NCBI GenBank assembly: GCA_973895155.1 | Contig: OZ316893.1 | Location: forward strand, 18,728,857 to 18,792,856 | Direction of reading: 5' to 3' | DNA length: 64,000 nucleotides | Source: Marsupella aquatica | Taxonomy: Eukaryota > Plantae > Marchantiophyta | Part shown: in pieces, positions 194 through 64,000 of the stretch | Numbering within the stretch: the stretch's first letter is position 1 | How the letters are laid out: the number at the start of each line of letters is the position of its first letter | Program-made: the position numbers and the translations under genes | Notes under the pieces: model-generated | What the model was told of the DNA's origin: nothing | Seen by the model: the letters and a program-made list of their open reading frames with translations, nothing else | Database searches by the model: none

Positions 194-874
194 CTACTTG
201 TGAGGCAATTGCAAGACCTGCAACGCATCATGGTGTCTAGAAAAAGTCCCCAAAGGAATCACTTTGGTAAAAGCGTCAGTCAAGTTGAGTTTACCATCAA
301 TCTTGACTAGCTCAAACATATTATCAGACACAACCTGCCTGATAAAATGGTACCTAACATCAATGTGCTTCATTCTGCTGTCCATCACCTGGTTCACAAC
401 AAGGTGGAGCGCACTCTGACTATCACAATGAAGCTTCACATTCCCATGTGGCAATCCCATCTCAGTGATCAGTCTATCCAACCAAATCGCTTTCTTAGCT
501 GCTTCCGCTACTACAACATACTCCACTTCTGTAGTAGACTGAGCAATACACTTTTGCAAAGTAGACCTCCAACTTATGCATCCACCGCCAAGTGTGAACA
601 CATAACCTGTTGTTGACCTCCTCCAATCCAGATCCTATGCATAGTCAGCATCTACATAGCCCATCAATGATCTAGCATTATCAGCATGTGCATCAAACAA
701 TAGACCATGATCCATGATACCTTTCAAGTACCAAATAATCCACTTCACTGCTTCCCAATGTACCTTCCCTGGATTTGACATGTACCTATTCACCTTGCCC
801 ATAGCCGTGGCAAGTTCAGGTCTAGTGCAAGTCATCAAATACATGAGACTCCCCACTGCCTTGTCATAAGGAAT
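194..874 (-). pseudogene. Copia-A RT C-terminus and RNase H (stop/frameshift)
   Basis: IPYDKAVGSLMYLMTCTRP, GYVDADYA, QSTTEVEY, CDSQSALHL, KHIDVRYHFIR and DAFTK are Copia RT/RNase H motifs. Confidence 0.95.
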
Positions 875-1210
875 CACTAGTAGAAACCGGGGTAATTTAG
901 ACCATACCTTATAGGACTAAGCCCACTAAGTCCTTCTTCCATACTTTAAATGACTTGCACCCATTGCCAAGGTTTTGTTAAAGACTATAAAAGACTTTGA
1001 GTGTTTTCCGGTTTAGTTAAAGACTATGAAAAGTAACCTTGCTACTTTGTGAAGGGTGAACACTCTAGGACATCATGGGTTTTGTTCTTGGAATCACTCT
1101 AAAGGTCCACACAAAGACTAGTATAAGACAAAGTCTTCCAAGGGTTCATGATAAGAGTATACTTAAGAAGGACCGGGTCCTACTTTGGGCCTAAGTGCTT
1201 AAGGACATGC
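875..1210. repeat. CACTA-1 5' TIR and subterminal short-motif array (AAGACT/GACT/AGTC)
   Basis: There is a dense cluster of (a/g)gact and agtc motifs, mirrored at the 3' end. Such arrays are typical TnpA-binding subterminal repeats. Confidence 0.7.
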
Positions 1211-3390
1211 CTTGTATATATCACCAACCTTAACTAACATTGCACCATAAATATCCATGTAACGGGTACTTTTCATAACTTAGGGTACAACTGTACTGGA
1301 GGGCTTAGGGTGGTTTCTAACCAGAACCGGAACTAATGCATCACTATAACCCTAGCTAGGTACAACTCCCACACCATGATATATTCCGCATTGCCAACTA
1401 GTGTTGTTTTGACAGGGTCATGGGCACTAATTGACACAATGAACAGTCCACAACTTGATTGATTTGAGTGTAAATGATGGTGCCTTTTGATCCAAGATTA
1501 ATTCCACAAGGGGGGGGGGAGGGTTAGGGGGGCCCACAACTAATTAAGTGGCCATGACTTTGTCACCAAAGGGATTTATTTAAAGTTATCCTTAACCCTC
1601 TTTAGTTTTGTGTGTTGCCTAACACTCTGGCGCAAACGTACTTATTATGCTCAACGGGTCACCTCAACGGAAACGAGCTTACATGACTGCTTGCACTAAG
1701 TATTGGGTTAGGGTGAGTGTGCTTTGGTCATCAGGTGATTATTGGGTTTTTGTGAAGGGAACTATCGAGTACTTGCGCCCATGTGTTCGGGCCCCATTGT
1801 GCGACAGAACATTGTGCTTTGCTTCTATGAGTGGAGCATACGAGTAGGGTTTAGGGTTAACATTTTGCGAGGGAAGCTGGGAGGCGATTGTAGTCAATTG
1901 TTGCCATCCACTCCTGCGAGCGCTTTTGACAGTTCTACCTGCATGCCCCTTACAATTGTTTGGACAAAGGAGTTCAGCAAGTGGTTTGCGCTGGTTTGGG
2001 ACCTTGACAGTCGTGAGGTGGTGAGGACATTGAGGCATCCCTGGGAAGCGCTTGATGGTAAGGACATTGAGGTGTTGGAGACATTGAGGCGTTGCGGACA
2101 TTGCCTTAGAGGCTCTTGAGGCCAGTGACAGCTTTTGGCGCGAAGGCAAGCGGAGATTTGTCTCCTGCCTGAGAGCTGACAGCTTCGGATTGAGACAACG
2201 TGGGCGCACCAAGATTCAGAGAAGACTGACTGGCTGGGACCGACCGGTCTTGGGAAGTTGCAGCCGTGGAGGGACCGGGAGCGCTAAGGTACATTGCAGC
2301 TACGAGCAGCAATGCACCTGCCATAGTGACATTGAACTGCCCTGAATCACCCTGGTTAGTCCAAACTTCCATTTGCAAGTTAGTTTTGGTAGTGGCTTTG
2401 GTTTTCTAGGCGGAATGAGCTCCGATGCCATGCATTAAGAATGTGGGAAATGCTATTTTGTAGCTTGCTACCTCATAGTGCTAATTTCAACTTCAGGTTT
2501 GCGTGGTTTTGGGCGATAAGCTTGTGGCTCATTCGGACTGAGTGACCTTCCTGCGGGCCCTGCCCTAAGTGTTCACACTTCTCGCCGTCCCAAACTGCGA
2601 AAGGCTTCTCCCCGTTCTATATCCCTGCTTCAGTAATTGTATTGAGGTCTTTCAATCAGTCTCATAGGGGAGGTCATTGTCTTCTCTGTAAGTTGTTGCT
2701 CCTATCGCACTACCAAGCTTGTTGAAGGGAGCTACTATCGCGAGCTGCTACCATTGCAAGCTACTACCATCGCAAGTTGTTGAGGAGAGGGCCAGTTGTT
2801 TGCGAAAGGATTTCCAGATTGTGTCGGAGGTCCAGATTTCTTGCCTGTGGGTCCCCATGTTTGCAGTTTTTTCCTGGCTTCTTGCGCAGTGCTCCGACGT
2901 AGTACCCATGATGCTAGTCTGAACGGATTCATGAGCTGTGACTGATTTGCTGTTCAAATGATGTCTTCAACTAGAGCTACAATTAGTGTCTGCGGAGCTG
3001 CCAACCAGGTGCAGGTGTGATTGAGGTCAGTTCAACTGTTGGGTTGCCCGAATGTTCCGTTGCCATCATTTGTAACCACGAGCAATGGACTTTAGAGGCG
3101 GGATTTTCTAGGGATTTCTGCTCAACCCTTTGCTGGCTTTCTACTTTGAGGTCTATTTTGGGGTTCGGGCAAAGGGCGGAGGGCGAAGATCAAGCATTGC
3201 AGTTTTGCTAACGCTGCATGGTGGAAATTGGACCAGCCAACTCCTTGTCTACGGTGTTGTGGAGCTGGGCGAGCTGCGACAAGGGACCAAGCCAGGCGAC
3301 CTGTGAATCAAAGCCCATTGACCGCTGCTGAAGATTTGATGTTCTATATTTGAAGCTCTTGTTTGCTTTCTATTTGTCAGTCTTTCACAG

Positions 3391-3531
3391 CTGCGCATTA
3401 GTGTTGGCCCTATCCTCCGTCCCTCTGCTGGCCTGCTACTGACATTTGGTTAATCATAGTTGTTCACTACTGTGCATTAGTGTTGGCCCTATCCTTCGTC
3501 CCTCTGCTAGCCTGCTACATTTGGTTAATCA
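3391..3531. repeat. Imperfect ~62-66-bp direct duplication inside the CACTA 5' arm
   Basis: ctg(c/t)gcattagtgttggccctatcct(c/t)cgtccctctgct...catttggttaatca occurs at 3391-3456 and 3470-3531. Confidence 0.85.
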
Positions 3532-6191
3532 AAATGCAATGTCTGTCTGAGTGAGCTGATCATCTCCAATGTAGTATGGGCTTGGGATTTACATATATGT
3601 TTCTTGCTTCCAGCAGATAGGCAATTGCTTCCAAGCTCTTTGGTGCAGACGTCTCTATGGAATGCAATGCCCTATATGCCAGAGCTTTCATATATTGGCA
3701 TGTTCACATTTGCTCTTGGAATATATGATCCCGAAAGCTTCATGAGCAGTTTATGTTCAGAATTCTGTTTATGTTATTGTTTCTGTCAATTGCAGCTTGG
3801 ATTTTTGAATATATGTCCTGTCATTGATGATAGAGGGTGGTTGAGATTGGTTTTCTTTCTTCTTGGTAGTGGGTCAGTGTGTTGGCATTTTCCTCATGTC
3901 ACTCATTCTCATCGGACGAGCTGCGGATTGGTACTGAATAGTCATTTAGCCTATTGCTGCCTCCCACCGCCATTGCCGATTGCCGCTATCATCGTGTATT
4001 GCTTGCTTGCTTGCCACTGCCTTTGTTGGTTGCCACCCTCTTCACACTCTCTCGCATCTATCTTCCGATATGAACGCGCAGCCAAGCCCACCAAAAGCTC
4101 TGTCCCTACAATCCCTCCCAAATCAACTTCCTTGTTTCCTGCTGCTCATGATCACCGCATTGTTCTTCCCTATTTTTGTTTACTTATTGGTCTCTCCACA
4201 CTTGTTGCTTCACATGACTATTTTGCTCCTCCCTGGATCCGAACATGCCTTGTGCCCAATGCTCCCACGGTGGAGTGGGGTGGTGAATAGACGACCTCAA
4301 CACCATTGCAATCACATTTGGATGGGTTAGTTTTTTGCAGCTTAAACCTGTCGGGATTTTGCGCTTGTGGCGACGCTATCCTTTCTGCCACTTCATGAGT
4401 TTGTTTATGCTGCAGTGGGCGGTCTTGCGCAACTCAATGAGCCAATTTCATTTTCCCTGTGCACTTCTATTTCTCAGAGAATTCCCTGGTCATGCTCATT
4501 TGCCCCAGAGTTAGAAAACAAAGAAGAAGAAGAGCTGACTAATTGTAATTCCAATCCATATCCTGATCGGTCAAGGATTGTGAACTACATTGGCCTTGTC
4601 ATTGGCCGAGGTCACCAAATTTTGCTTGGTTTCATTCCTGTGGAGCACTGTTGTGATGGATGAATAGTTGTCGTAGCATTCTGCAAACTCTCACGGTTTG
4701 CTTATGGCCATTATTTGCAATTTGCTGCTACTAATATGTCTCCGACTGAGCAGCATACACCGGAAGTAAGCAATAGTGGAGGTTTAACTGCACATCAACA
4801 CATCCAGTGAACTACCTCTCTGCTGCTCACTGGAGGGTGAGACTTTCACTCTTTCTGGATATTGTAGTTTGTAAGCAAGTTGATTAGGAGTGTTTCATGC
4901 TATGTTTACATTGTGACCCCTAGCTGGAACCAATGGAATGACACAGTGAGTGGGAACTGATAATTTAAGGTTGGTTGCTGTTGGTGAGGCAAGTACAGCT
5001 CCTGCTCACCTTGCTGATCGAAGGTGCTTATCAGAGGACGTGAACACACGACACTCCACAAAAGCAACACTTATGGTGAGGACCCGCAATGCTGAACATG
5101 TGCGGCTTGCACGCAAGGTAGAGATGTTGCACCTTGAGTATGTCAGACTTGGGATCCTTCCAGCCCAGTCTGCATGGTACTTTGAGTACCCAGTTGTTGC
5201 CAGGAATAACTACAGCAGCCCTGTACCTGCTTCTCCACCCTTCCCAACATCCTTGGTATTTTTGTCTCTCGTACATGACCCGCCACAAATTAGGGCCCAA
5301 GGGTGTGTGCATAGTTGCCAGTATGACTGTCCTGCCTGTAGGGCTTCTGGCCTAGAGTTGGATGACCGTTCTCTTGGATGTCGGTTTTTTCATAGAGCAC
5401 AATGTATCATCTGGAACCACTCGCCATCCTGTAGTGTGCCTGGCGATGTCACTTGTCCTGCCCTCCCAGACCCCACCACCGGTCACTTTGGTGTCTACAC
5501 ATGTTTGGATCACACGCTGTAGAAGACCACTTGTCACACCGCATGCACAAACCAGAGACCATTGACCTATAACTTAACACTTTGACTTGAACAGAGAGGA
5601 TATTTACTTAAGATTTTGAATTATGAGCAATTTTGGGTCCAGGGTTTACGGTCAACAGTACATAACTTATCCTATTATGGCTGCACTAAGTACAATATCC
5701 TAATTTAAGAGGCTAGCAAGCTCACTTAAAAGTCTCCTTTCAAAGACTGGAATTAATGGGCCATGTGATAACCTGGAAAAAGTGATTTATGCCTAACTTA
5801 TTTGTCTCATTCACTATCATAGCCTATTTAGGATGTATAAATTACAACCCTGATCACACTGCTTGATACCAATCCTGTTCAAAAAATGCCTATTTTACAT
5901 GTCACGACTGTTATATGTGATTCAAATGCATTAAATCTTGTTGCAGATCTCCTTTGGTGAATCATAGCCACAAAATTGAGGTGTAGGTGGAGCTATTGTA
6001 TGAGGGGATCAGTTTTTAGTGTGGGCTCAACAAACCAAAAAGTATGTCTACTCTGCACATGTGTGTGAACATTTCATTGTAGTAGCAATTGCCACTCTAG
6101 TCTATATGCTACACTGTACTTTTTGTACACTGCACTAAATTGTATTGTCTATGCACTCTGCTAAATTGTACTATCTGTCTCAGGTGTAGGC

Positions 6192-6872
6192 ATGGCACGC
6201 CCTAAAATCCGAGCCAAGAAGCAGGGGACAGAGGTGAGCAACACAGGTGTAGTTGGGCCAGATGGTAGTAACTTCTCTGCAAGTCAGATTTTCCAGAAGG
6301 CAGCTCATTGTTGTGCCATTTGTGACGATGGTGGTGGCTTAGCCATATGTGAGGGCCCTTGCATGAGGCATTTCCACCTCAACCCGGAGTCTGACCTTGC
6401 TGCAGAAAACAACTGTCCAGGGGTGGGCCTCCCGTCAGCACACCAGGGAGGCTGGATGTGCACTGATTGTTTGGAGAAGCAGGCTAAGTGTGCACAGTGT
6501 GGGAAGTTGGGGTCTTATGAGGGCTCTGTTGATGCTCCACCACTTGTTAGGAAATGCCCTGACAGATATTGTGTGAGGTTCTTTTGTTTTTCATGTTTGC
6601 CCGATCTTGCCACAGCTTGCCCACTTCATAAGTGCAAGGCATGTGGTCAGCACGATGAAGATTTCTGGGTGGACATAGTCCACTGTGTTAGGTGTCCCAC
6701 CATGTGGCACTTTCATTGTTTGAAGGAGCGTCAAGCAGAAGGCTATGCTTGTGATAGACACATCTATGATCACTCTGCACATGGTGTTGATCGATGGATC
6801 TTCTATTGTCATCGCCATGCCATAGATCCTACTTTGCACACTCCCATGAGAGATCACATTTCTTGGCTTTGA
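6192..6872 (+). CDS. EDM2-like: Stand-alone EDM2-like atypical PHD-finger cassette protein (226 aa), CACTA cargo
   Basis: The ORF is open from ATG to TGA and preceded by a splice acceptor (ctcag, 6183). It has a basic N-terminus (RPKIRAKK). Its motifs CAICDDGG.L.ICEGPC.R.FH, C.DC....KC..CGKLGS, CPLHKC..C, C.RCP..WH..CL and IFYC..H.ID..L.TP.RDHI are colinear with the PHD region of plant EDM2 as recalled (CAICDNGG..LCCEG.C.RSFH...CPLHKC...CRRCPKSYH.KCL...IYC..HEIDE.L.TP.RDH). Confidence 0.85.
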   Translation: MARPKIRAKKQGTEVSNTGVVGPDGSNFSASQIFQKAAHCCAICDDGGGLAICEGPCMRHFHLNPESDLAAENNCPGVGLPSAHQGGWMCTDCLEKQAKCAQCGKLGSYEGSVDAPPLVRKCPDRYCVRFFCFSCLPDLATACPLHKCKACGQHDEDFWVDIVHCVRCPTMWHFHCLKERQAEGYACDRHIYDHSAHGVDRWIFYCHRHAIDPTLHTPMRDHISWL

Positions 6873-7470
6873 ACCTGAATAATGTACATGCATAGTGCAC
6901 CTGATGTGGATACCTTGGATATTGCAGACATTCCAATTTTGAGAAGAAGGACCTCTGTAGGAGAGGATGCTTAGGCAACAAGTACCCTAAGTTCATTACT
7001 TGTTCCTGGGTACATGCCTTCAAAAACTCCCCTTAAGCCTTCTAGGAACTTTTTTAACTCTGCAATCATTTTGATCACGACTTACATGACATTGCTTAAA
7101 TTAAATCAGGACTTCTCATTATGAGCATATAAGTTACAAGGCTATTTAATTTGCGAGAATTCCCTTAAAGTGTACCAACATTTTGTATTGTCATTGAATG
7201 TCTGCCCATTTACAACATCTGTATGTGGCATCACAAAACAATTGCACTTGTCACCTTCAATATTGTGAAGGCACATATTCAAACTATGAGGTGCATGCTT
7301 GCAGGTGTCTAGTACGTTTGTCCCAATATTTCTCCCGTTTGGAATCGGAGCAGAGACTCACCAGATGACTGGACTGGACCAAGTTATAAACGCAGCATTT
7401 TAAGGGCCCTCCGATTATCAGGTGAACGCATTATCTTCCGGTCTGCAGTGATTAGGTGGCCCGTGTGTAC

Positions 7471-8319
7471 ATGGCCTCTAGGAAACGTACAAAGGTTGAC
7501 CACCCGCCTCTGTTGGCTAGAATCAAAGCCATTTTGATTCCTGGCCACTATGGGTTCACCCAAGTGAGTTGGCCAATCGTACAAAAATGATTCTCAGAGT
7601 TCCATGGGACTGAAGTCAAGGACATCACTCCACAGACTACACATGTTGTTGCGGGGACATGGCTGGATGTGATGAACAACTGGTCATGGTCCTTCATTGA
7701 TTCTACCATTACCAACCAAGGTCTAAAAGTAGTTGAAGTCTCTTGGCTGACCGATTCTGTTAAACATAGGTGTGTACAGAGTACTGAGCAATATGAGTTG
7801 TGGGAGAGTGAGGAGGCCACTGCAGAGGCTTTGGCTGAAAAGGAAGCCTATGAAGCAGCGGCAGAGAAACCCAACTTTGCTTCTGTCCAATATGGACCTG
7901 TTGTCAACATAGGACACCATCCTATGCATGCAGATGCTATATTGAATGAGCATGGCAAGGAGAGAAATACCATTATGAAGGGGTTCAGTGTGGTATTTGC
8001 AGAAGAAGGAATTGGGGAGACTAAGTGCAGATTGTACAAGTCTATAGTTGTTGAGCTAGGTGGGACAGTGGAGGAGAGTCTAACAGAAACCTCCACTCAT
8101 GTTGTAGGTCTGTCATACATGAAAATATGCAGAAAATTCTTTAAGACAACAGTGCGTGATTTTGTCATGAACAACAATCTTTGGGTGCTTTCCCCTGATT
8201 GGCTTCTGGAATCAGCAGCTAGAGGGAAGCGACAGAATGCTTGGGACTTTGATATTTTTGAGGCCTGGCCCTCCAAGATTCAGTGGAGATGTATGCTTAG
8301 CAAAGGTGGGAGAGAGTGA
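7471..8319 (+). pseudogene. Tandem-BRCT domain protein, CACTA cargo; one in-frame TGA at 7588-7590 in this copy
   Basis: ATG 7471 (MASRKRTK, NLS-like) is in frame with ORF 7669-8319. There are two BRCT-like repeats: ...FHGTEVKDITPQTTHVVA...VVEVSWLTDSVK...EQYEL and MKGFSVVF...IVVELGGTVEESLTETSTHVVG...VLSPDWLLESAARGKRQNAWDF. Confidence 0.8.
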
Positions 8320-8495
8320 GGAGTAGGAGTCCCTCATATTTTTGTATAAATCACAATTTTGTAATAAATGTGATCCTTGAACTAACTCATCTTGTCATGG
8401 TTGGTCGCAGTTGAAGTGATTGTTGTTTCCTGCTGCGTGGGGTGTGACTGTGAATCTACTTGCTGGGCTATGTTTGGCTGAAGACTTTGGTGGGT

Positions 8496-9029
8496 ATGCT
8501 GCCTCTTCCAGACCGTCAAGCCCTATGTAGGGTCCTCCTACGGGTTGCATCGTGCATGGCTACTGCTTGGGCTTACTTGTGTGGATTGGTAACCAGACAG
8601 AGTGTAGCTCCATCCGAGATAATGCCTGCAGACCTTGGATGTGTTGTGAATGCTGTGGTGAATGAGGATGCACAATCGGAAGAGGACATTTACTTTTCAG
8701 CAGATGAGTTAGACAAGCACGATGCTGTAGGTGGTTCCTTGTTGCCTGATTTGGCAGATGATATAGTTCTTACACATGTCTGGCCAAGGGTTCTTGTGGT
8801 GTCTGGCACACAAGATATCTGCAAATATAGACTAATTAGTACCCAGTGGAGGGACTTGGTAGCAACATGTGCACCATGGAGGGCACTGCTGCCACTGCTT
8901 GTAGGCACGGATCGAAGACCACCATGGCATGAGCAGGGTTTAGACCTTGATGACTTAATGTACATGCTTGAGTACCTCAGGGCTGAGTGGCATCGACAAC
9001 AGGATTGGTATCCGTATTTGATGTGGTAG
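8496..9029 (+). CDS. F-box-motif protein, CACTA cargo (start uncertain: ATG 8496 or 8556)
   Basis: SLLPDLADDIVLTHVWPRV...ICKYRLISTQWRDLV (~8736-8860) fits the plant F-box consensus L(I/L)PxLPDDI...LxRV...RxV(C/S)xxWRxL. Confidence 0.65.
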   Translation: MLPLPDRQALCRVLLRVASCMATAWAYLCGLVTRQSVAPSEIMPADLGCVVNAVVNEDAQSEEDIYFSADELDKHDAVGGSLLPDLADDIVLTHVWPRVLVVSGTQDICKYRLISTQWRDLVATCAPWRALLPLLVGTDRRPPWHEQGLDLDDLMYMLEYLRAEWHRQQDWYPYLMW

Positions 9030-9355
9030 TAAGATGAGGACATCTCACACCGGTCTCGCACCTGGCACCTGTGTCTATGACTATACATGATTGGACTCTG
9101 ATATGGTCATGGATGTACGTGCAGAGGCAGTACATGTGAGGACAGCGGAGGAGTTGACACCCTCAAACATTTAGGAATTTTGTCTCATTCACTTGAGAAT
9201 AGGTACATGACTCAGGCACCTATATTTTTTGTTTTTTTGTTTTTTTGGAACGTTACGTATTTTGGCAAGTACAGTCGGGGGTGAAATCCTTAACAGGAAG
9301 TGTATTTTTCACTTGCATAATAAAATGACAAGGTGCTGAGTGCGTGTGTATAGTG

Positions 9356-12300
9356 ATGGCTCCAAGGTTGCCTCTTCACAACCCATTTAGGATTAGGCAT
9401 CATGATTCTAAATTGTGGATGCGTGAACAAGCCCGGGCCGCCCAAGGTAGGAGTAGGAGGATGAGATGCCCATGCACACAGTGCCAAGGATTCAAGTCGT
9501 TGAGTTTGAACACTGTGCACCTTCACCTGCTGCGGCATGAAAGGCACCCTCGGTGGAGGGTTTGGAATGTACCAGCAGAAGAAGACTCCTCTGATGAAGA
9601 GTGGAGAGCTGACTTTGTGGATTCTAATACAGCTAGGCGTAGAGACTACGTAGAGCAGGACATAGACTGTGCAGAGGATGGTCCTGGGGTCCAACATGAG
9701 AACGTGGATGACCAAGATGGAGATGTAGAGGCAGTCACTGAGGACGGTGGGATGGATGTCCCAAGAATGGTTCAAGAGATTTTTGAAGACCTTGATGCTT
9801 TTTACGACACAGTGGAATCAGAAGAGGACAATGAACCGCAGCCACACATTGGCGACGGCCAAGCTGAACCTGACTTTGACATTGGGGAAGGTGCAGCAGA
9901 GAGGGAGTGGGTGTTTGGGGGCCCAAAACACATCAAAGAAGCTTGCATTCCTATCTACGAGGGGTCGAACTGCTCCAAGCTGGGTTTTGTCGTGTTGTTG
10001 TTGAACATCTGTGGCAATCACAATGTTCCCAATATATTTGTGACAGAGTTGTTGACCTTCCTGCGCCGAAATGTGTTACCAGATGGTAATTCAATTCCAA
10101 AAAATATGTACGAGGCTAGGAAATTGATGTCTAACCTTGGGCTGAACTATGTGTCTATTGATGCATGCCCTGATGGGTGTGTTCTCTTTCGCAAAGAGCA
10201 TGCAGATAAATTGACATGCCCTCATTGTGGTAAGCACAGGTACAAGAATGTAGGGAAATGTACACACCCTGCCAAGGTTCTTCGTCATTTTCCTCTCATT
10301 CCTAGACTACAACGTCTGTTTAGATGCCCTGCCATTTCCAAGCTGATGACATGGACTCCTGATAACAAGAGCAGTGATGGCCTGCAGCGTCACATTGGAG
10401 ATTCCAACCATTGGAAATTTGTTGATGAGAGGTGGCCACAGTTTGCTGCAGAGAAGCGGAACTTTCGATTTGGTCTATCACTGGATGGAGTAAACCCATT
10501 TGGAGACAAAAACAACCGTTATTCATGTTGGCCGGTTACGCTGCTAAATTACAACCTTCCCCCATGGATGACTACAAAGAGGTTTTTTGTCATGATGGTG
10601 CTGTTAATCCCTGGACCAGCTTCTGTGACCGAGCAATTCATAGATATCATGTTGGCTCCAGCAGTGGAAGAGTGGAAGACTTTGTGGATAGAAGGGGTGT
10701 TAACCCATGATGTTCTGAAGGGGCTTCTTCGACCCAGCCCCTTTAGACTGCATGCAATTTGTTTGCTGGATATAGCAGATTACCCAGGCCATGGCATCAT
10801 ATCTGGACGAGTGACAAAGGGCTATGTGGGGTGCACACCATGTGGGAAAAATGTGACAAGTGAGTGGTCGCATGCCTTGCACAGTATGAAATTTCAGGGG
10901 CATAGAAGGTATCTGCCTATTGATCATCCTTACAGGCACACACGGTCTCAAATTGCACACTTCAACAACAAAACAGAGCTCCGTGGCCCACCACAGAGGG
11001 TCACCAGAGAGCAAGTCCTGAGGTGGGCAGCCAGGAAGGCTGATTGGGACAAGAGAAGTGCCACTGATCGAGAACCTGAGGATCCAGTGGTGAAACACGG
11101 TGTGAAAAGACAGACCTTGATGGACTTGGAGTTGGAGTACTGGAGGGTAATGTACTTAGCCTCCAGCCCCTGTATGATTGCAATTTTAGATTGGAGCAAT
11201 GGTGGATTGATGTTGGTTACAATCCTCCTATGTGGTTAATTAGTGTTTCTGTTGTTGAATTCTTTGCTTTGTGGAGTGCAGGAATTCGAGCCCAGCAAAC
11301 ACAATGTGGACGTCATGCACATTGAGAAAAATATTTGTGAGAGCTTGCTGAAGTTCTTGTCGGGTGAGAAAGATACAGGAGCAGTTCGAGCTGATATGCA
11401 ACAGAAGGGGATTCACCCTCACCTTTGGTTGAAGCCCCATGCAAGCAATCCCAATGTACTTCTCAAGTTCCAAGCTCCCTATGTGTGCACACAGGATGAA
11501 TGGAAGACATTCTTGTATAGATTGAGCTGTCTGAAAGTGCCCTCTGGCTATGCTGGTGCCTTCAAGAAGCATATTACAAAGAATAAACTTGGCAGTATGA
11601 AAACACATGACTACCATGTGTTGATGCAGCACATTCTGCCCCTATGCCTCAGAGGTCTCATGCAGAAACCAGTCCGTAATGTCATTCTTCGACTGTGCAA
11701 TGTATTTCGCCGTATATGTGTGAAAGTGTGGGATCCCCAAGGATTGGAGCAGTTGAAGCAGGATGCTGCTTATGTCCTCTGTGACTTGGAGATATACTTC
11801 CCCCCTGCTTTCTTTAATGTTATGACTCATCTCCTAATCCATGTGGTAGAAGAGCTAGGGCAGTATGGGCCAGTCAGTACCAGATGGATGTACCCTATGG
11901 AGCGATACATGAAGTTGTTGAAAGGTCATGTGAGAACATACTATAGGCCAGAGGCTTCCATGGCATTGGGGTACATTAAGGATGAGACGTTGGGATTCCT
12001 AACAGAGTACATGGCTGGGTCTGGTGAAGCTATGACAAGAGTTTGGAAATCTGGTGAAGATGATGGAGTGAGTGGCGAGGTTGTTGAAGGTGTGGGACGT
12101 GCTGTTCAGCTGCCTGTTGCGATTCGAGACAAGGCTCATTCATATGTGCTGGCAAACACAGAGCCTATGCAACCATGGTGGAGGTGAGTGATTGAATTGA
12201 CTTGCCTTTGTTGTGATGCTTCTTGTCTGTTCCAAGGGTGATCTTAGGTTGTCATGTGTTGTTTAGACCTAATTATGCCTGTACCTCATATTGCAGGGAA

Positions 12301-13056
12301 TATGATATGCAAAAAGCTGCACACTCTAGGCAGCAGGATCCCTTCCCACAGTTCGAGCAGTGGATTCGGGTGACAATTCGAGAGCATAGTAGACATCACC
12401 CAGATATGGAGAAGGATTTGTATCTTCTATCTGTGCCACCACGATTGTCTATTCTAACCTACAAACAGATGAGAGCTTATGGAAATCATTATCGAGTGAG
12501 GGATGAGCAGGGTGACCATTGTGTATCATATGATTGTGGTTTGATTTCTGTGTTTGAGCAGAGAACCTCTGAAGAACAGAGGGGGTGGATGAAGATGGGT
12601 TACGTGGGGGAGTTGATCGACATTTGGGTGTTGAATTATGGTAACACAAGTGTCCCAGTGATATTGATGAAGGGATCATGGGTGAAATCAGAGTGGCAGA
12701 GACCAAGGGCCACCATGAAGCGTGATCATGATGGGTTCTTGTTGGCCAATTTTAGGTCCAGAGTACCAGAATGGTCTGAGCCTTTTGTTTTCCCTAGCCA
12801 AGTTGAACGGGCTTTCTTTGCAGATGTGGAGGAGTCACATGGCTAGAGGGTGGTATGCCATAGCCAAGCACGGAACAGGCGGATGGATGGAAGTAAAGTA
12901 GAGTTCAGTTTGGATGACCATGCTGCATTCGAGCATCCTAGTCATGAGATTGTACTTCCAACTCGGGCAGGGACTGACTACATCCCCTTAACATTGAGAG
13001 AGACATATGATGAACCTGGGCAAATGGAATATGATGAGGTTGATGATTTGCAATAG
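9356..13056 (+). pseudogene. tnpD: CACTA TnpD-type transposase (Transposase_21, DUF4218 and DUF4216 architecture); exons 9356-11146, 11282-12183, 12297-13056; premature TAG at 12844-12846
   Basis: Motifs include RCPCTQC...HL, IDACPDGCVLF, VLRHFPLIPRLQRLF, LSLDGVNPF, YNLPPW, DYPG, HNVDVMHIEKN, WMYPMERY and EPFVFPSQV. GT-AG introns at 11147-11281 and 12184-12296 restore the frame (LEYWR|EFEPSKHNVDVMHIEKN). Confidence 0.95.
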
Positions 13057-13233
13057 GCAACAGCTGGCGATTGGCAAGTATGAGGTTGAGGATGACTACC
13101 TGCACAGAGTCACAGAACGGGAATTGCTGCCTGGAATGATGTTTAGGATAGTTGGATATGCATGAAATTGATTGATACTTTGAATTTAGTGTGCTGATTC
13201 TCCCTGTTTGGTTGTGGGTGATGTGCAGAAGCT

Positions 13234-16200
13234 ATGGGGGAAGAGGGTGATGACATGGAGACAGACATGGGGCTTGGAGAGTGGGGTGAAGAGGAAAGAT
13301 TGGATATGGATGGAGACCCAGATGCAGGGGGCTCACAGAAAAATGCACCTGTGCAAGATGCACAGGGCCCTCATCAAGTCCCAGGTAGGTGGGCAGCTAG
13401 AGAGAAATCACATAATCCATACCCTAGAAGGAGCCAGAGTTATTGGCAAGGGACGCCTGATAATTATGATGATGACTATGATGGAGCAGAAGATGGATGG
13501 GATGATTATGAACACCCAGAGCGTGGTAGAGACGGGTACAGAGGGCAATGGAAAGGTGAGGAGGATGATTGGACAAGTAAGTGCCTTGTGCTAGTGATTT
13601 TGTGATGGTAGTAGAGATTTAGCTCAATATGCACTTATCTGATGTGTAGCTAGGGCAAAGAGTTTATCTTACAGGTCCATGAGTGTGGCATGTACCTGTT
13701 GGTATGCAGACTCTGATTGGGACAATCACGAAAACAACAAAGGCCATCCACGTTCAGATAGGAGGCAATCATTCACAGGCGGGAGAAACGCCCCTAATTC
13801 ATCAAGACAAAGCAATAGGACAGGTGGTCCAGAACCATCTATGCGCCAAGGGAGAGGTAACTTGGTCATTGCAGAATTGCTCTGAAGTCCACTGTATATT
13901 TGGCAGCGGGATTTATGATTCATACTTACCTAATGTAAGTGACTGTAAATGGATCCTGTAAATGTGCAGGGACTCCAGGGAGGTTTGGACAATGCAATCC
14001 AGGCCGTGGGGGGAGATCAGGCCGTGGAGGGACCCCAGGCCGTGGGGGGACACCAGGCCGTGGAGGGACACCTAGTAGCACTTCAGGGAGTACCAAGGCA
14101 GGAGACAGTAACAAATTTGGTAAAGTAGAAGTGAATTCCGAAGGTTGGATAACTCCCACATGTGATGGTAAGAACCGTTGGCATTCTGACCTAAGAGGAG
14201 AAGTATTGCGTTGGTTAGATTTGAGCATTACAGAGTTTAGGAGTCAGAACAAAGCTGATTGGGCTACTATCTGCAAGGACATTCTTGAACGGTGGGAGTA
14301 TGTTGGTAATGATGGTAAGGGCCCAGTTGAAGATTGCATATCAGATTATGCAATGAGGATTTTGAAACAAGAGAGGCATAGGTTGAAAAGGATGTGGATA
14401 GACAATGGTTCTAACAGGAGAATGCCACCACCCCCATCATTGGAACTGGATCAATGGACACGGTTAATCAAAGGGTTCATGTCGGAGGCTGGACAGAGCA
14501 AGAGTGAACTGATGTCAAATGCTCGAGGCAAAGTGAAACACCTTTCACAGGCTGGGAGAGGAAGTTATGCTCTAGTGAAAGAACAATTGGTAAGGCAGTG
14601 ACATGCCTGATAGTAAGCCTCAAACTTATCATCTTGCTACCATTATTACATTTTCATTGACAATCAACACTTGGTTTCATTCATATGTATGTTGATGTGG
14701 ACTGCAGAAGAAATTGACAGGTGAAGAACCATCAGCACAAGAAGTGAGAGAGGAGTTCATGAAACAAAGGAGTGAGGTGACAAGTGTAACTTCCAAACAG
14801 GTGATTATGTTGTAATTCTGTATGTTCTGTGACTATTTGGCCTTGAGCATCAGAAAGAAATGTAGTAGGAAGTAAACAACCAGTTCTTGGGGACAGTTAT
14901 CTGAGATATGTAAGCTGTGTTATGACAGGGAACTGTTACAACTCTCACAGAGATGTGTGAACGGTTGAAGTCATTAGAGTGTGGACTCCCTCAAGTGGAA
15001 AGTAAATTGGCTGATCGTTTGGATATTGTGGAGGCATCTGTAGCGAACCTTCTTGCATCAGTGGAATCTAATTTCAAGCTTGTGATTGAAAAATTGGGTG
15101 GTTCCCAACCAAACAATGAGGGCAACATTGTACAAAGTGTGCCCTTATTAACAAAAAAGGGAATTGGCAAATCTGACACAGGTATGGAAATGACACCGGC
15201 CCATTGTTCATTGTGTCCTATGTTCAAATGTTAGAAGTAAGTTTTCATGAATTGAGTGAATGGTTTGAATGCAGGAAGAGTGGAGGCAGAGAAGGACCCT
15301 GTAATCAGTAAGCAGAAGGGCAAGAAGGTTGCTGAGACAGGTAACCTGCTATGATCCAGTACATTACATTTGAAAAGTGCATGGAGTTTTGTGAAGCTTA
15401 AGCCGGTTGGAGGTAATCTTTTCTGTAAGAACTGGTTGGATGAACTGGGATCTGAAGTGACATCATGATTGATGTATCAGGTGATTCAAAGAGCAATAAT
15501 GAAGAAGATGTGCCCAGTGCCTCAGTGACCATAGCCAAGGAGGTATCAGGTAAGCTGATGCTTTAAATTCCTCTATATGAATGTTGAGAAACAATTCAGT
15601 GGTTAATAGATTCAACTTGAATATTGTGGTGTGTTTATTGATCAACAGAAGCAGACATGGAGCATATGGCAATGGCAAAGAAGGGGAAGAAGGCTGTTCA
15701 TAATGGAAAGGAGATAGTGACAACTTTGTGGTTGGTGACATGTACATTTAGCACATGTGATGAGTGATTGACTTATGTTGGACATGACACTGAATTGTAG
15801 TTGATGCAGAGTTGACAGACTCTCAACCAAGTGGGAGCAGGGTGAAGCGAGGTCGAAACTTGGGAGCAACATTGGATGCAAGTAAGATTGTAGATGCTTC
15901 AATTGAAGCAAGTACAATGTTGGCAGATACTGAGATGATGTCGCAGGGAAATCCTGCTACACAGTCAGAAGTGTCAAATATGGATGCAGATTCTTTGAAG
16001 AAGAGTGTAGCCAATTCTCGATCACCAGCACAAAACACTCATGCCAAAGTCATGACTCGCAACCAAGGTATGAATAATGTCATGTATAAGCCACCCAGGA
16101 AAGCCAAGAAAAACAGCCAGGGTAAGGTGGAGGTGATAGCCACAACAGAGCCAGTCCATAATCTTCTATCATGGGAGGATGACTCGCAGGTATGTGTGGG

Positions 16201-16405
16201 TACAGGCATTTTGCGACCGGATCATGCAAAATTCCATGGCAAAGTGGTCCCGGATGACCATGTAGTAGTGTTGTTGACTACAGTGATTGTATCTGATTGT
16301 AATTTGCCATTTCCGAATAGAGACGATGATCCACCTCAGGAAATAATTGCAGATGCAGTAGGATCTCTTGTGCTTTGGCCATCAGAGTGTGTTAGTCTGC
16401 AGTGA
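13234..16405 (+). CDS. tnpA: CACTA TnpA-like multi-exon gene (exon boundaries approximate)
   Basis: A series of short GT-AG-bounded exons follows TnpD. They encode an acidic N-terminus, RGG repeats, a Ptta/En-Spm-like core (RHRLKRMW...PPP...QWTRLI...SELMSNARGKV...GRGSY), a coiled coil, and the C-terminal FHGKVVP...LPFP...DAVGSLVLWP domain typical of plant CACTA ORF2. Confidence 0.8.
13998..14072 (+). repeat. 18-bp tandem repeat (~4 units) encoding (P/S)GRGG(T/R) RGG boxes in TnpA
   Basis: Units of ccaggccgtgg(g/a)gg(g/a).. translate as PGRGGRSGRGGTPGRGGTPGRGGTP. Confidence 0.9.
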
Positions 16406-16899
16406 CTGAATGCAAGTGTAGATAGAATCATGTGAATTGTGTCACATTTTGACATTGCCTTGGAAAGATCCAAGAAATATCTGTACCAATTTTTCCATTT
16501 GGTAAAGAGGATGAAGGAGCCGTTGTGTGTGACATTGATATTTCTGAATTCTGTATGTATGAAACAAGTGATTGATGTCAAACTATGGCTCTATGGTGAT
16601 TGTCTATGATATTTGAATCTGTTTTGTATCATTTCAGTATTAGTGTGTATGGTATAGAGGAATACTTTGTGACCTTCTTTGTAGTCTATGAAGTTTGAAT
16701 CTGTGAATTCATATTAGTGTACATGGTATAGAAGATGGCTTTCTGAAACTATGTATTCTAATGTTAACATGATGAATGGTGAACTTATAGAGTGAGTTCA
16801 TTCCAAGTACACAATAACACATGAATGCAATATGTTATTTGTGCACAAGAGTGGGTTCATTCCAAGTAGTATAGTGGGGTCTTCATCACTCATATCCAG

Positions 16900-17232
16900 T
16901 TGACATGAAAGACTTATACATACCCCACAAAGTATATTTAAAGACTACCCTCCATAACCTTTTTAGTCGTTCCCAACGACTCACCATCTCAGCCCATAAA
17001 AGACTGAAAATGACTCACCAAAGCTACCCACACAAAGACTAAAATAGATTGAAAATTCAGTCTATTAAACGACTTATAAACCAGTTCTATAAAGGACTCA
17101 GTTGATTATAGTAACAAAACATACGACTCGCAGTCCTATAAAGGACTGGAATCCTTCCCAGTCGTTTCCAAGTCCTACACGGTACTGAATAGTCATTAAT
17201 GGGGTCTAAATACCCCTCGGTTTCTACTAGTG
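16900..17232. repeat. CACTA-1 3' subterminal motif array and TIR
   Basis: Repeated aagact/gact/agtc motifs end in TTTCTACTAGTG. Confidence 0.75.
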
Positions 17233-17235
17233 AAT

Positions 17236-20200: not shown

Positions 20201-20360
20201 AGGAATTGTACAATGGAGGCAATGAACTAAGAAGCTGTAGAGCCTTCTTCTCATCATTCAATTCCTCCCCAAGGTTTTCCAAGTCAACGACCATGTCGTT
20301 GAAGGCATCCACATGGTCCTGCAACTTTGTACCGATTTCTTTCATCCTAAAACTCATCAA
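17236..20360 (-). pseudogene. Copia-A gag C-terminus, protease, integrase and RT (multiple stops/frameshifts)
   Basis: Motifs include the zinc knuckle CWKCNQVGHFKRVC, VKYVPGMRKNLI, LRSNNGGEY, QQNGIAERLNRTLLE, FRLWDP, SLYGLKQSPRLW and LYVDDMLIA. Confidence 0.93.
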
Positions 20361-22982: not shown

Positions 22983-23026
22983 ATTTTTCCAATTTTCCCC
23001 TTTTTGCGGATTATAGATAGCTGAAG

Positions 23027-37124: not shown

Positions 37125-37333
37125 AACTCCCCCTTGACTCTTGTCTTGGGGACTGAACTAAATGCTACCATATGGAATCCTCAGCGGGAAGTTCTAGACA
37201 ATCATCAAACCAGGTCTCTCCCTAAAAACCACAAAGGTTAAAACTAAGGGTTAACTAGAACTAAGCCGTAGCCAAACAGGAATGAGTAATCCATATACAA
37301 ATAGTCACACATTGCTAAATAACTCTACTTGCA

Positions 37334-48592: not shown

Positions 48593-49106
48593 TACAGTGT
48601 ATTAAAACCACTACTCTGCACATTGTTACTTATTGTTGATTACATTCATTTGAAGCTCATAAAATATTCATGGCAGTTCCAATTTTTATAATCGACTATT
48701 AAGGAGAAGAAGGCCTACTTTGGATTAGACAAATAGAAGAGAGATTACAAAGCTGTAAAGTGTATGCAAAAGAACTAAAAGTAGTACTGCAGAACCTGCT
48801 TGCTCAGTGCTACAAACGACCATTTGTTTGATGCCATGTGGAAGGGTTGATCCCGAGGAAAGCAGACCTAAGTGATCTAGACTAACTACAGTTGGGACAG
48901 AAGAAAAGATTGCAAAAATGTAAGTTGTTTTTTAACACTCATGCCTCAAATTGACCAAGTCGCCACAAACTACTCTAGACCACATGTAAACATTATTTTG
49001 CTTCTACACAATTGAAGCGACTGCCTAGTTTAGTCGAATGTCACATTTCAGTCCCTTCCAATTTTGAGTTTTGACCAAATCATCTTTGGAAACTAAGGAT
49101 TCCTGA

Positions 49107-58300: not shown

Positions 58301-58744
58301 GCTAGTATTATTCAAGACATGCATGGTGGCCTAGATGCTAACAATTGTGACTATGAAAATTACCTTGGAGATCTGGTCGACGTTGGTGATTACTTTGCTG
58401 TTCTGGCTGAGGAAGGGAACATTTGGCATGCAGAATTTTATATTTTGCTGTGCACAAAGTTGGCTGCTATTGTTGAAGCAGACTTCACTGATGATTACGG
58501 TGCAAAGTTCTTGAAGGGTGATAGAGTGTTGGCTGGCACTTGGTATCAACAGTATGGCAGGTTATCGGATTATTGTTTTGTTAGATATGAGAAGGCTAGC
58601 TTGAGTTATGTGGATGTGTCCTCTGTGGTACACATCAAATTTGGTCTTGTACCAACAAAGGTTGTGAGCGGTTCACCAGGATTCAAAATTTCATCCAACA
58701 CCCTAGATGCAATTTTGTGTTCAACAGAAAGGTACTCAGTCTGA
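55400..58744 (+). pseudogene. Sola2-like DDD transposase gene (introns 56358-56560 and 57755-57883; 5' frameshifts; in-frame TGA 57578-57580)
   Basis: Motifs include IGLRSFQAMKPYF...NVCCCKQH, C..GLCEDC, IDFAENY..AVQDEVQSLHW, ISDDNSHD, WSDGCAAQFK, WCFHASGHGKGLQ|DGLGGGVK and RDLACFCEDC. This series matches Sola2-type transposases as recalled; the superfamily call is unverified. Confidence 0.72.
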
Positions 58745-59595: not shown

Positions 59596-60423
59596 CACTA
59601 GTAGAAACCGGGGGGTATTTAGACCCCATTAAATGACTATTCAGTACCGTGTAGGACTTGGAAACGACTGGGAAGGACTCCAATCCTTTATAGGACTGCG
59701 AGTCGTATGTTTTGTTACTATAATCAACTGAGTCCTTTATAGAACTGGTTTATAAGTCGTTTAATAGACTGGATTTTCAGTCTATTTTAGTCTTTGTGTG
59801 GGTAGCTTTGGTGAGTCGTTTTCAGTCTTTTATGGGCTGAGATGGTGAGTCGTTGGGAACAACTAAAAAGGTTATGGAGGGTAGTCTTTAAATATACTTT
59901 GTGGGGTATGTATAAGTCTTTCATGTCAACTGGATATGAGTGATGAAGACCCCACTATACTACTTGGAATGAACCCACTCTTGTGCACAAATAACATATT
60001 GCATTCATGTGTTATTGTGTACTTGGAATGAACTCACTCTATAAGTTCACCATTCATCATGTTAACATTAGAATACATAGTTTCAGAAAGCCATCTTCTA
60101 TACCATGTACACTAATATGAATTCATAGATTCAAACTTCATAGACTACAAAGAAGGTCACAAAGTATTCCTCTATACCATACACACTAATACTGAAATGA
60201 TACAAAACAGATTCAAATATCATAGACAATCACCATAGAGCCATAGTTTGACATCAATCACTTGTTTCATACATACAGAATTCAGAAATATCAATGTCAC
60301 ACACAACGGCTCCTTCATCCTCTTTACCAAATGGAAAAATTGGTACAGATATTTCTTGGATCTTTCCAAGGCAATGTCAAAATGTGACACAATTCACATG
60401 ATTCTATCTACACTTGCATTCAG

Positions 60424-63400
60424 TCACTGCAGACTAACATACTCTGATGGCCAAAGCACAAGAGATCCTACTGCATCTGCAATTATTTCCTGAGGTGGAT
60501 CATCGTCTCTATTCGGAAATGGCAAATTACAATCAGATACAATCACTGTAGTCAACAACACTACTACATGGTCATCCGGGACCACTTTGCCATGGAATTT
60601 TGCATGATCCGGTCGCAAAATGCCTGTACCCACACATACCTGCGAGTCATCCTCCCATGATAGAAGATTATGGACTGGCTCTGCTGTGGCTATCACCTCC
60701 ACCTTACCCTGGCTGTTTTTCTTGGCTTTCCTGGGTGGCTTATACATGACATTATTCATACCTTGGTTGCGAGTCATGACTTTGGCACGAGTGTTTTGTG
60801 CTGGTGATCGAGAATTGGCTACACTCTTCTTCAAAGAATCTGCATCCATATTTGACACTTCTGATTGTGTAGCAGGATTTCCCTGCGACATCATCTCAGT
60901 ATCTGCCAACATTGTACTTGCTTCAATTGAAGCATCTACAATCTTACTTGCATCCAATGTTGCTCCCAAGTTTCGACGTCGCTTCACCCTGCTCCCACTT
61001 GGTTGAGAGTCTGTCAACTCTGCATCAACTACAATTCAGTGTCATGTCCAACATAAGTCAATCACTCATCACATGTGCTAAATGTACATGTCACCAACCA
61101 CAAAGTTGTCACTATCTCCTTACCATTATGAACAGCCTTCTTCCCCTTCTTTGCCATTGCCATATGCTCCATGTCTGCTTCTGTTGATCAATAAACACAC
61201 CACAATATTCAAGTTGAATCTATTAACCACTGAATTGTTTTTCAACATTCATATAGAGGAATTTAAAGCATCAGCTTACCTGATACCTCCTTGGCTATGG
61301 TCACTGAGGCACTGGGCACATCTTCTTCATTATTGCTCTTTGAATCACCTGATACATCAATCATGATGTCACTTCAGATCCCAGTTCATCCAACCAGTTC
61401 TTACAGAAAAGATTACCTCCAACCGGCTTAAGCTTCACAAAACTCCATGCACTTTTCAAATGTAATGTACTGGATCATAGCAGGTTACCTGTCTCAGCAA
61501 CCTTCTTGCCCTTCTGCTTACTGATTACAGGGTCCTTCTCTGCCTCCACTCTTTCTGCATTCAAACCATTCACTCAATTCATGAAAACTTACTTCTAACA
61601 TTTGAACATAGGACACAATGAACAATGGGCCGGTGTCATTTCCATACCTGTGTCAGATTTGCCAATTCCCTTTTTTGTTAACAAGGGCACACTTTGTACA
61701 ATGTTGCCCTCATTGTTTGGTTGGGAACCACCCAATTTTTCAATCACAAGCTTGAAATTAGATTCCACTGATGCAAGAAGGTTCGCTACAGATGCCTCCA
61801 CAATATCCAAACGATCAGCCAATTTACTTTCCACTCGAGGGAGTCCACACTCTAATGACTTCAACCGTTCACACATCTCTGTGAGAGTTGTAACAGTTCC
61901 CTGTCATAACACAGCTTACATATCTCAGATAACTGTCCCCAAGAACTGGTTGCTTACTTCCTACTACATTTCTTTCTGATGCTCAAGGCCAAATAGTCAC
62001 AGAACATACAGAATTACAATATAATCACCTGTTTGGAAGTTACACTTGTCACCTCACTCCTTTGTTTCATGAACTCCTCTCTCACTTCTTGTGCTGATGG
62101 TTCTTCACCTGTCAATTTCTTCTGCAGTCCACATCAACATACATATGAATGAAACCAAGTGTTGATTGTCAATGAAAATGTAATAATGGTAGCAAGATGA
62201 TAAGTTTGAGGCTTACTATCAGGCATGTCACTGCCTTACCAATTGTTCTTTCACTGGAGCATAACTTCCTCTCCCAGCCTGTGAAAGGTGTTTCACTTTG
62301 CCTCGAGCATTTGACATCAGTTCACTCTTGCTCTGTCCAGCCTCCGACATGAACCCTTTGATTAACCGTGTCCATTGATCCAGTTCCAATGATGGGGGTG
62401 GTGGCATTCTCCTGTTAGAACCATTGTCTATCCACATCCTTTTCAACCTATGCCTCTCTTGTTTCAAAATCCTCATTGCATAATCTGATATGCAATCTTC
62501 AACTGGGCCCTTACCATCATTACCAACATACTCCCACCGTTCAAGAATGTCCTTGCAGATAGCAGCCCAATCAGCTTTGTTCTGACTCCTAAACTCTGTA
62601 ATGCTCAAATCTAACCAACGCAATACTTCTCCTCTTAGGTCAGAATGCCAACGGTTCTTACCATCACATGTGGGAGTTATCCAACCTTCGGAATTCACTT
62701 CTACTTTACCAAATTTGTTACTGTCTCCTGCCTTGGTACTCCCTGAAGTGCTACTAGGTGTCCCTCCACGGCCTGGTGTCCCCCCACGGCCTGGGGTCCC
62801 TCCACGGCCTGATCTCCCCCCACGGCCTGGATTGCATTGTCCAAACCTCCCTGGAGTCCCTGCACATTTACAGGATCCATTTACAGTCACTTACATTAGG
62901 TAAGTATGAATCATAAATCCCGCTGCCAAATATACAGTGGACTTCAGAGCAATTCTGCAATGACCAAGTTACCTCTCCCTTGGCGCATAGATGGTTCTGG
63001 ACCACCTGTCCTATTGCTTTGTCTTGATGAATTAGGGGCGTTTCTCCCGCCTGTGAATGATTGCCTACTATCTGAACGTGGATGGCCTTTGTTGTTTTCG
63101 TGATTGTCCCAATCAGAGTCTGCATACCAACAGGTACATGCCACACTCATGGACCTGTAAGATAAACTCTTTGCCCTAGCTACACATCAGATAAGTGCAT
63201 ATTGAGCTAAATCTCTACTACCATCACAAAATCACTAGCACAAGGCACTTACTTGTCCAATCATCCTCCTCACCTTTCCATTGCCCTCTGTACCCGTCTC
63301 TACCACGCTCTGGGTGTTCATATTCATCCCATCCATCTTCTGCTCCATCATAGTCATCATCATAATTATCAGGCGTCCCTTGCCAATAACTCTGGCTCCT

Positions 63401-63595
63401 TCTAGGGTATGGATTATGTGATTTCTCTCTAGCTGCCCACCTACCTGGGACTTGATGAGGGCCCTGTGCATCTTGCACAGGTGCATTTTTCTGTGAGCCC
63501 CCTGCATTTGGGTCTCCATCCATATCCAATCTTTCCTCTTCACACCACTCTCCAAGCCCCATGTCTGTCTCCATGTCATCACCCTCTTCCCCCAT
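60424..63595 (-). CDS. tnpA: TnpA-like multi-exon gene of CACTA-1 copy b
   Basis: It mirrors 13234-16405. Confidence 0.8.
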
Positions 63596-63772
63596 AGCTT
63601 CTGCACAGCACCCACAACCAAACAGGGAGAATCAGCACACTAAATTCAAAGTATCAATCAATTTCATGCATATCCAACTATCCTAAACATCATTCCAGGC
63701 AGCAATTCCCGTTCTGTGACTCTGTGCAGGTAGTCATCCTCAACCTCATACTTGCCAATCGCCAGTTGTTGC

Positions 63773-64000
63773 CTATTGCAAATCATCAACCTCATCATAT
63801 TCCATTTGCCCAGGTTCATCATATGTCTCTCTCAATGTTAAGGGGATGTAGTCAGTCCCTGCCCGAGTTGGAAGTACAATCTCATGACTAGGATGCTCGA
63901 ATGCAGCATGGTCATCCAAACTGAACTCTACTTTACTTCCATCCATCCGCCTGTTCCGTGCTTGGCTATGGCATACCACCCTCCAGCCATGTGACTCCTC
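63773..64000 (-). CDS. tnpD: C-terminus of the TnpD transposase of copy b (partial; open through the codon that is a stop in copy a)
   Basis: It reads EESHGWRVVCHSQAR...; TGG at 63985-63983 corresponds to TAG at 12844-12846. Confidence 0.9.
   Translation of the reverse strand, partial: EESHGWRVVCHSQARNRRMDGSKVEFSLDDHAAFEHPSHEIVLPTRAGTDYIPLTLRETYDEPGQMEYDEVDDLQ

Follow-up and report, generated by a model that had tools for sequence, protein, structure and literature searches.

What would a transposon do with small genes made from the domains of host regulators? The question is raised by a CACTA element of about 16 kb (positions 875-17232) in a 64,000-nucleotide stretch of contig OZ316893.1 from Marsupella aquatica, the whole of which is referred to here as the window. 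Ahead of its TnpD transposase gene and in the same orientation, with ORF1 starting 5.3 kb inward of the 5' terminal inverted repeat (TIR), the element carries three open reading frames (ORFs), ORF1 to ORF3 (Table 1). The original prediction had described these as an intronless cassette lying between the 5' TIR and TnpD and coding for an EDM2-like PHD protein, a tandem BRCT protein and an F-box protein. Their order and common orientation were correctly read, but a probable fourth gene, ORF0, was overlooked. Comparison with related sequences makes it likely that the cassette is selected and element-borne. With its three and probably four small conserved genes, which go back to host regulator domains, it may well supply the accessory proteins that help the element to be transcribed and to move from silenced chromatin, although confidence in this reading falls slightly short of even. 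That at least one of the genes counters silencing is entertained at a similar level.

The evidence is richest for ORF1. Pfam returned matches to three NSD-type PHD models, all below cut-off. Five unnamed full-length relatives of 217-245 amino acids (aa) were found, at 81, 75, 54, 40, and 38% identity, and the profile of these six sequences reached NSD2/NSD3 in PDB (E 9e-11) as well as 546 representatives at E up to 0.001. Among the best 150 of the 546, the first matches are further stand-alone proteins of 166-245 aa, followed by long proteins. The long ones among the 20 proteins looked up are EDM2 or EDM2-like, from Marchantia, Riccia, Calypogeia, Ceratopteris, Diphasiastrum, Selaginella, and angiosperms. 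The alignment covers the whole EDM2 PHD module, composed of 2.5 atypical PHD fingers, up to its C-terminal TP..DH motif, which bears out the label EDM2-like. By contrast with EDM2, ORF1 consists of the PHD module only and lacks both the N-terminal RFD, which is visible in the host proteins, and the C-terminal methyltransferase-like (ELP) domain. Named host EDM2-type proteins are 28-35% identical to it among the top 30 BLASTP matches, and no near-identical host gene was found in the databases searched, which did not include the host's own genome.

In a careful tree of 34 chosen sequences, all nine stand-alone proteins (187-245 aa) form one clade with support 100/100 on a stem of 2.13 changes/site. 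This tree omitted 103 of 137 available sequences, including the two longest branches (P0147 and P0148) and two near-duplicates of P0011. A liverwort paralogue as the donor of ORF1 was hinted at by a quick tree of all 137 sequences, but the careful one does not resolve where the clade sits within the EDM2 family. Relative to EDM2, the clade has lost about 21 aa from PHD2, where a His ligand has also become Cys, and has gained a basic N-terminus, which in ORF1 reads MARPKIRAKK, as predicted. Of 22 Cys positions, 18-20 are conserved, compared with 31-49% of the other residues; eight of the nine proteins end just past a DH.[SA]W motif, and the ORF1 stop position is retained at 38% identity. Five of the 15 proteins viewed in the set of relatives begin as the cassette protein does and then depart early, which suggests decayed transposon copies.

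None of the nine clade proteins has an NCBI or UniRef record, all of them coming from Logan, JGI/IMG, or ENA contigs. A metagenome scan for ORF1-type loci yielded nine loci, of which seven have the host form of EDM2, one is a 37-residue match, and one encodes an unrelated multi-PHD protein; the stand-alone clade was absent from all nine. Searches for genomic context found nothing in viral contigs (five scans) or prokaryote genomes (two scans). The structural model of ORF1 is weak (pLDDT 51) and gave no match below E 0.001, its C-terminal half resembling NSD PHD5-C5HCH and PZP modules at E 0.002-0.04. Given the diverged clade, the conserved ligands, and the distance from host EDM2s, ORF1 appears, as far as the databases reach, to be an old, fast-evolving EDM2 derivative stripped to its PHD module rather than a recent capture.

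Short PHD-only EDM2-like proteins also occur under names from Miscanthus, wheat, and Aegilops (clusters P0034 and P0045), and similar ones are present in metagenome loci L001, L002, and L004-L007. The quick tree places P0034 and P0045 away from the ORF1 clade, and the careful tree does the same for P0034.

The frame of ORF2 starts with another basic N-terminus, MASRKRTK, again in agreement with the original prediction. The two predicted BRCT stretches are present, but the frame is not open in the window copy, since a TGA lies in frame at codon 40 (7588-7590). Three public runs from two studies (X1, X3, and X4) differ from the window copy at 7588, the other base making up about 100% of the depth, and a relative, P0006 (294 aa, 60% identical, with a similar basic start motif), is open through the stop site. 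On these comparisons, ORF2 is open family-wide and the stop is private to the window copy. Placing the stop inside a 34-nt intron was rejected: such an intron would be too short and would shift the frame, and other copies do not share the stop. ORF2 and P0006 each match PF00533 in two stretches (47.7 and 56.4 bits), and they are 64 and 66% identical in the BRCTs compared with 45% in the linker of about 55 aa. The structural model (pLDDT 33) made the fold search uninformative. The best PDB match of P0006 is the BRCT of the end-joining polymerase TdT, at a non-significant E of 0.061, and BRCT2 of the window copy matches BRCA1 first (E 0.13). A Pol X-type origin was set aside, as the single match in its favor was not repeated with the window sequence. 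An Atlas search with BRCT2 returned only generic BRCT clusters, below 0.9.

The F-box of ORF3 scores 13.2 bits (E 0.086), below the Pfam cut-off of 20.5. The motif is nevertheless conserved in two relatives at 49-53% identity, which score 19.3 and 17.7 bits. In PDB, one relative, P0007, finds F-box proteins as its two best matches (E 0.036 and 0.27), and its identity to ORF3 is 67% in the F-box and 64% in the tail, compared with 26% at the N-terminus. ORF3 is probably F-box-derived. Its 45-aa tail has no family match, and no substrate-binding domain is recognizable. Just upstream of the ORF3 start, the interval 8427-8525 is where summed contig depth peaks in run X3, and its bin is also high in X8; it is possibly a conserved regulatory element. 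Taken over the cassette, domain identities judged by sequence are firm for PHD and BRCT and weak for the F-box. The claim that these are discrete modules rather than random exon fragments is upheld by the full-length diverged relatives of ORF1-ORF3 and by conservation concentrated in zinc ligands and domains.

Upstream of ORF1 and in the same orientation, ORF0 has no meaningful Pfam match and no Atlas match. Nine of its 14 listed variants are silent, where a fraction of 0.23 would be expected (nominal p 0.0013), and diverged contigs start aligning at 5058, just ahead of its ATG. It is probably the fourth cassette gene. Two contigs of run X2 skip 5216-5989 and 5512-5959, respectively, which suggests deletion derivatives.

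How far the cassette is retained was followed in public runs. It was found in part in ten runs from eight studies, none on record as RNA, four of which hold more than half of its words. In X1, near-identical contigs have a depth of 1648-2740 over the cassette (8 of 91 records) and of 1817 and 1912 over TnpD, and the cassette contigs show no majority indels or joints at 93% likeness. These similar depths are consistent with a cassette present in most members of the family. Parts of ORF0, ORF1, and ORF2 are also covered by diverged contigs (about 80-87% alike, depth about 30-170), and the runs that have these contain the close family as well. At 80% likeness, coding depth exceeds spacer depth in X2 (p 0.011) and X5 (p 0.017), is borderline in X8 (0.078), and does not in X1 (0.63), the bins not being independent. 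Six of eight ORF1 variants that differ among runs are silent, five of them on one contig; the ORF0 and ORF1 counts draw on 40 of 532 variant records plus further contig records, which are not independent, several coming from single contigs. Four replacements private to the window copy (ORF2 aa 17 and 70; ORF3 aa 105 and 158) depart from the residues found in the diverged relatives.

The boundaries of the element are those expected of a CACTA, as had been claimed. It is inserted into a copia element, has the TIR CACTAGTAGAAACCG at 875 and 17232, and is flanked on both sides by an AAT target-site duplication (TSD), whereas a second copia copy in the window has a single AAT at the homologous site. 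Exact matches of the pattern CACTAGTAGAAA in the window lie at 875 (+), 17221-17232 (-), and 59596 (+). CACTA/G termini with TIRs and a 3-bp TSD, a TnpD gene, and subterminal repeats are thus all present, as in CACTA/EnSpm elements. TnpD matches Transposase_21 (E 1.3e-59), DUF4218 (E 2.5e-27), and DUF4216 (E 0.002), and copy b differs at the site where the window copy has its stop. The TnpA-like gene matches Transposase_24 at 18.4 bits, below the cut-off of 28.7. According to the available parts of PMC13547354 and bioRxiv 10.64898/2026.08.24.746577, TnpA-like proteins are limited to flowering plants; this gene would be an exception if the host is non-flowering. By themselves, the domain types of the element and the link to EDM2 point to a land-plant host. 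TATAAA boxes occur at 5836, 7385, and 8345, as plain motif matches. Near the 5' end, 1739-2119 (+) holds an open frame of 112-126 aa with imperfect repeats spaced 17 bp (2014-2107) and no Pfam match.

Table 1. Coordinates of the CACTA element, its genes, and its sister copy in the window
Feature	Position	Strand	Remarks
TSD AAT, left copy	872..874		Right copy 17233-17235; one AAT at the homologous site of the second copia copy
5' TIR CACTAGTAGAAACCG	875..889	+	Imperfect match reaches ~30 bp
Subterminal repeats RRGACT	875..1275		n=7 here, n=8 in the last 401 bp, versus n=22 in 15,556 interior bp
ORF0, 149 aa	5073..5522	+	Cys/His-rich C-terminal half, no family; probable fourth cassette gene
ORF1, 226 aa	6192..6872	+	Stand-alone EDM2-type PHD cassette, basic N-terminus
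ORF2, 282 codons	7471..8319	+	Two BRCT domains; in-frame stop 7588-7590 private to the window copy
ORF3, 177 aa	8496..9029	+	Acidic stretch, F-box-like motif (~aa 83-130), conserved 45-aa tail
TnpD transposase	9356..13057	+	Three exons by eye: ~9356-11146, 11282-12183, 12297-13057; stop 12844-12846
TnpA-like multi-exon gene	13234..16405	+	Transposase_24 E 0.0025, below cut-off; bounds approximate
3' TIR	17218..17232	-	TIR match
Copy b, 3' 4.4 kb of a sister element	59596..64000	-	99.3% identical, 30 differences; cassette region beyond the window

Several other elements share the window. At 44786-50607 (-), a Plavaka transposase match (E 2e-19) is accompanied by an ORF (49912-50607) that is 36% identical to the C-terminal ORF of the TnpA-like gene of the CACTA, which suggests a second CACTA-related element with a TnpA-like partner. 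The interval 52796-58744 contains transposase-like ORFs without a Pfam match and a 1-kb internal duplication (95.5%). An opposite-strand ORF there, at 54366-54758, has a weak pairwise match (E 0.016, 30% over 46 aa) to the F-box of P0007, and F-box-like cargo may recur in the window. Two copia-type retroelements, one at 1-874 and 17233-20357, interrupted by the CACTA, and another at 37127-41581, and a decayed long interspersed nuclear element at about 21100-25600 were also found.

How could such genes help an element in silenced chromatin? EDM2 PHD fingers bind H3K9me2 (PMC7472560), and the ASI1-AIPP1-EDM2 complex, in which AIPP1 is EDM3, promotes full-length transcripts through intragenic heterochromatin (PMC7472560, PMC7529245, PMC10241880), according to the parts of these papers that were available, as holds for all sources cited here. 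An intron-bearing element of 16 kb in silenced chromatin would face the read-through problem that the EDM2 pathway solves. ORF1 would be likely to bind histone tails or EDM2 partners and could serve as a tether or a decoy in the pathway that yields full-length RNA through H3K9me2 chromatin. ORF2 would likely act in the nucleus as an adaptor where excision leaves double-strand breaks, and ORF3 would probably plug into SCF ligases or jam them; since it has no recognizable substrate domain, a decoy is as plausible as a degrader. As ORF1-ORF3 contain no known sequence-specific DNA-binding domain, specificity for the element would need TnpA at the subterminal repeats, or ORF0. A bolder version of this proposal is that a CACTA lineage captured the histone-reading module of EDM2, kept it as a separate gene that evolves fast, and combined it with BRCT, F-box-like, and Cys-rich genes in a counter-defence cassette reminiscent of viruses, in other words an anti-silencing system independent of VANC and TnpA that would act at RNA read-through and not at DNA methylation. 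This is put forward as a speculation, and a rather unlikely one.

A number of observations weigh against an anti-silencing role, or against the cassette being conserved cargo of the element. The F-box falls below the Pfam cut-off in all three sequences. The acidic residues that precede PHD1 in host EDM2s (FDSIC, DDPPIC, GDAAFC) are replaced by KAAHCC or SPHIC in the ORF1 clade. An Asp just before PHD1 binds H3K4, and with this acidic patch lost, the histone preference of ORF1 may be changed or lost. Differences between runs X4 and X1 comprise five replacements to one silent change in ORF2 and four replaced codons to one silent change in ORF3; being mostly amino-acid-changing, they give no short-term purifying signal, and the counts are too few to interpret. 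No contig among those listed spans the cassette and TnpD together, and contig depth is not a copy number. That the diverged relatives also sit in CACTAs is a presumption. Finally, EDM2 also promotes silencing at some transposable elements (PMC7529245), so the effect of an EDM2-derived gene could go in either direction.

The strongest alternative accepts that the genes are selected and owned by the element but has them serve transposition, with the PHD protein acting in target choice or timing and the BRCT pair in break repair, silencing being left untouched. The same conservation of ligands, domains, and clade would follow, the likeness of the C-terminal half of ORF1 to NSD PHD5-C5HCH and PZP modules and the TdT match of P0006 would both suit it, and a PHD finger is present in Rehavkus transposases (PMC6446971). 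Against it, the donor family, EDM2, has been described in RNA processing over heterochromatin (PMC7529245, PMC7472560), and the TdT match is not significant, the window copy preferring BRCA1. This alternative is considered unlikely.

Selection could also stem from host use, if the diverged relatives were ordinary host genes and the block had been picked up and carried passively by the CACTA. As the location of the relatives in CACTAs is itself presumed, there is room for this. Host proteins that resemble EDM2 but are short and have PHD fingers only are on record from Miscanthus, wheat, and Marchantia, and between close relatives silent changes are not in excess in ORF2 or ORF3. However, the clade proteins are all missing from NCBI and UniRef, the named short proteins lie outside the clade, and the diverged contigs over ORF0, ORF1, and ORF2 occur in runs that also hold the close family. 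Three unrelated domains that are compact, co-oriented, and free of coding introns likewise speak against passive pick-up, which is considered quite improbable.

A different doubt is whether the ORFs are separate genes at all, or belong as exons or cistrons to a single spliced transcript or to two, with ORF0 joined to ORF1 as one possibility. An acceptor-like GTGTAG/GC stands directly ahead of the ORF1 ATG, which restricts the claim of intronless ORFs to their coding parts, and two relatives (P0003 and P0015) have a Gly immediately before the same Met. Yet each ORF has its own stop, that of ORF1 being retained in the distant relatives, and P0006 and P0007 share the start positions of ORF2 and ORF3, respectively, so joined exons are given little credence. 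Least probable is neutral Pack-type cargo whose frames are open only for want of time in a young family: likeness between copies is about 99%, and stops have already broken ORF2 and TnpD in the window copy, but relatives at 38-60% identity are full-length and open, and what they conserve is mainly ligands and domains, a pattern that a database bias towards open frames does not explain.

With the accessory-protein reading retained as the preferred one, the cassette can be set beside known systems. The element is a CACTA, and neither a Pack-CACTA nor a VANC system. Pack-CACTAs likewise hold host-derived coding sequence inside CACTA termini (PMC6379663, PMC13317346), but they are non-autonomous, with gene fragments and no transposase gene (PMC13317346), whereas TnpD, though stopped in the window copy and not at that site in copy b, a putative TnpA-like gene, and whole, old, diverged ORFs are present here. 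VANC of the Arabidopsis VANDAL Mutator-like elements (MULEs) is also an accessory gene beside the transposase, proposed to come from a captured host chromatin regulator, MAIN (PMC10398659, PMC13547354). It differs in superfamily and donor, and VANC binds specific non-coding tandem repeats and has shown activity (PMC10398659), while an activity of the cassette is a proposal; no VANC/MAIN-like domain was matched by Pfam on ORF0-ORF3. As to EDM2 itself, ORF1 shares the 2.5-PHD module and its terminal motif at the identity given above, and departs from it in lacking the RFD, acidic, and methyltransferase-like domains, in the PHD2 deletion and His-to-Cys change, in the lost PHD1 acidic patch, and in its location on a transposon.

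Captured ubiquitin-system domains have spread inside DNA transposons, CACTA included, in KAONASHI-MULE and other ULP1-bearing elements, with a single protease domain (PMC2528002) where the present element has three or four separate, non-enzymatic adaptor genes. Fungal DNA transposons, EnSpm among them, carry TET/JBP as a separate epigenetic gene for which silencing escape has been proposed (PMC12730594); that gene is enzymatic, and no catalytic domain is recognizable here. Spm offers a further parallel in its TnpA, which causes terminal hypomethylation (bioRxiv 10.64898/2026.08.24.746577), as a putative TnpA-like gene and subterminal repeats are found in this element too, to which the cassette is additional. 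In the parts available, a 2026 survey that covers 962 protein structures of Spm elements speaks of accessory proteins without naming PHD, BRCT, or F-box in its main text (bioRxiv 10.64898/2026.08.24.746577), and PHD and F-box do not occur in a 2026 gene-capture review (PMC13317346). The assertion that this combination is undescribed in a CACTA agrees with the literature searched, to the extent that it was available and with Repbase, subscription journals, and supplements outside its scope. Transposons with captured chromatin or ubiquitin-system genes were already known, and what is new is an EDM2-derived gene in a cassette of three to four genes.

In the literature covered, the anti-silencing factors of plant transposable elements are VANC, TnpA, and transposases themselves. 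A young and abundant family carrying an EDM2-derived gene provides a direct test of whether transposable elements exploit the pathway that protects genes with heterochromatic introns, and with ORF1 a naturally reduced, minimal PHD module of EDM2 becomes available to biochemistry. Being absent from annotated protein sets, the cassette may mark an unexplored class of accessory genes, whatever its function.

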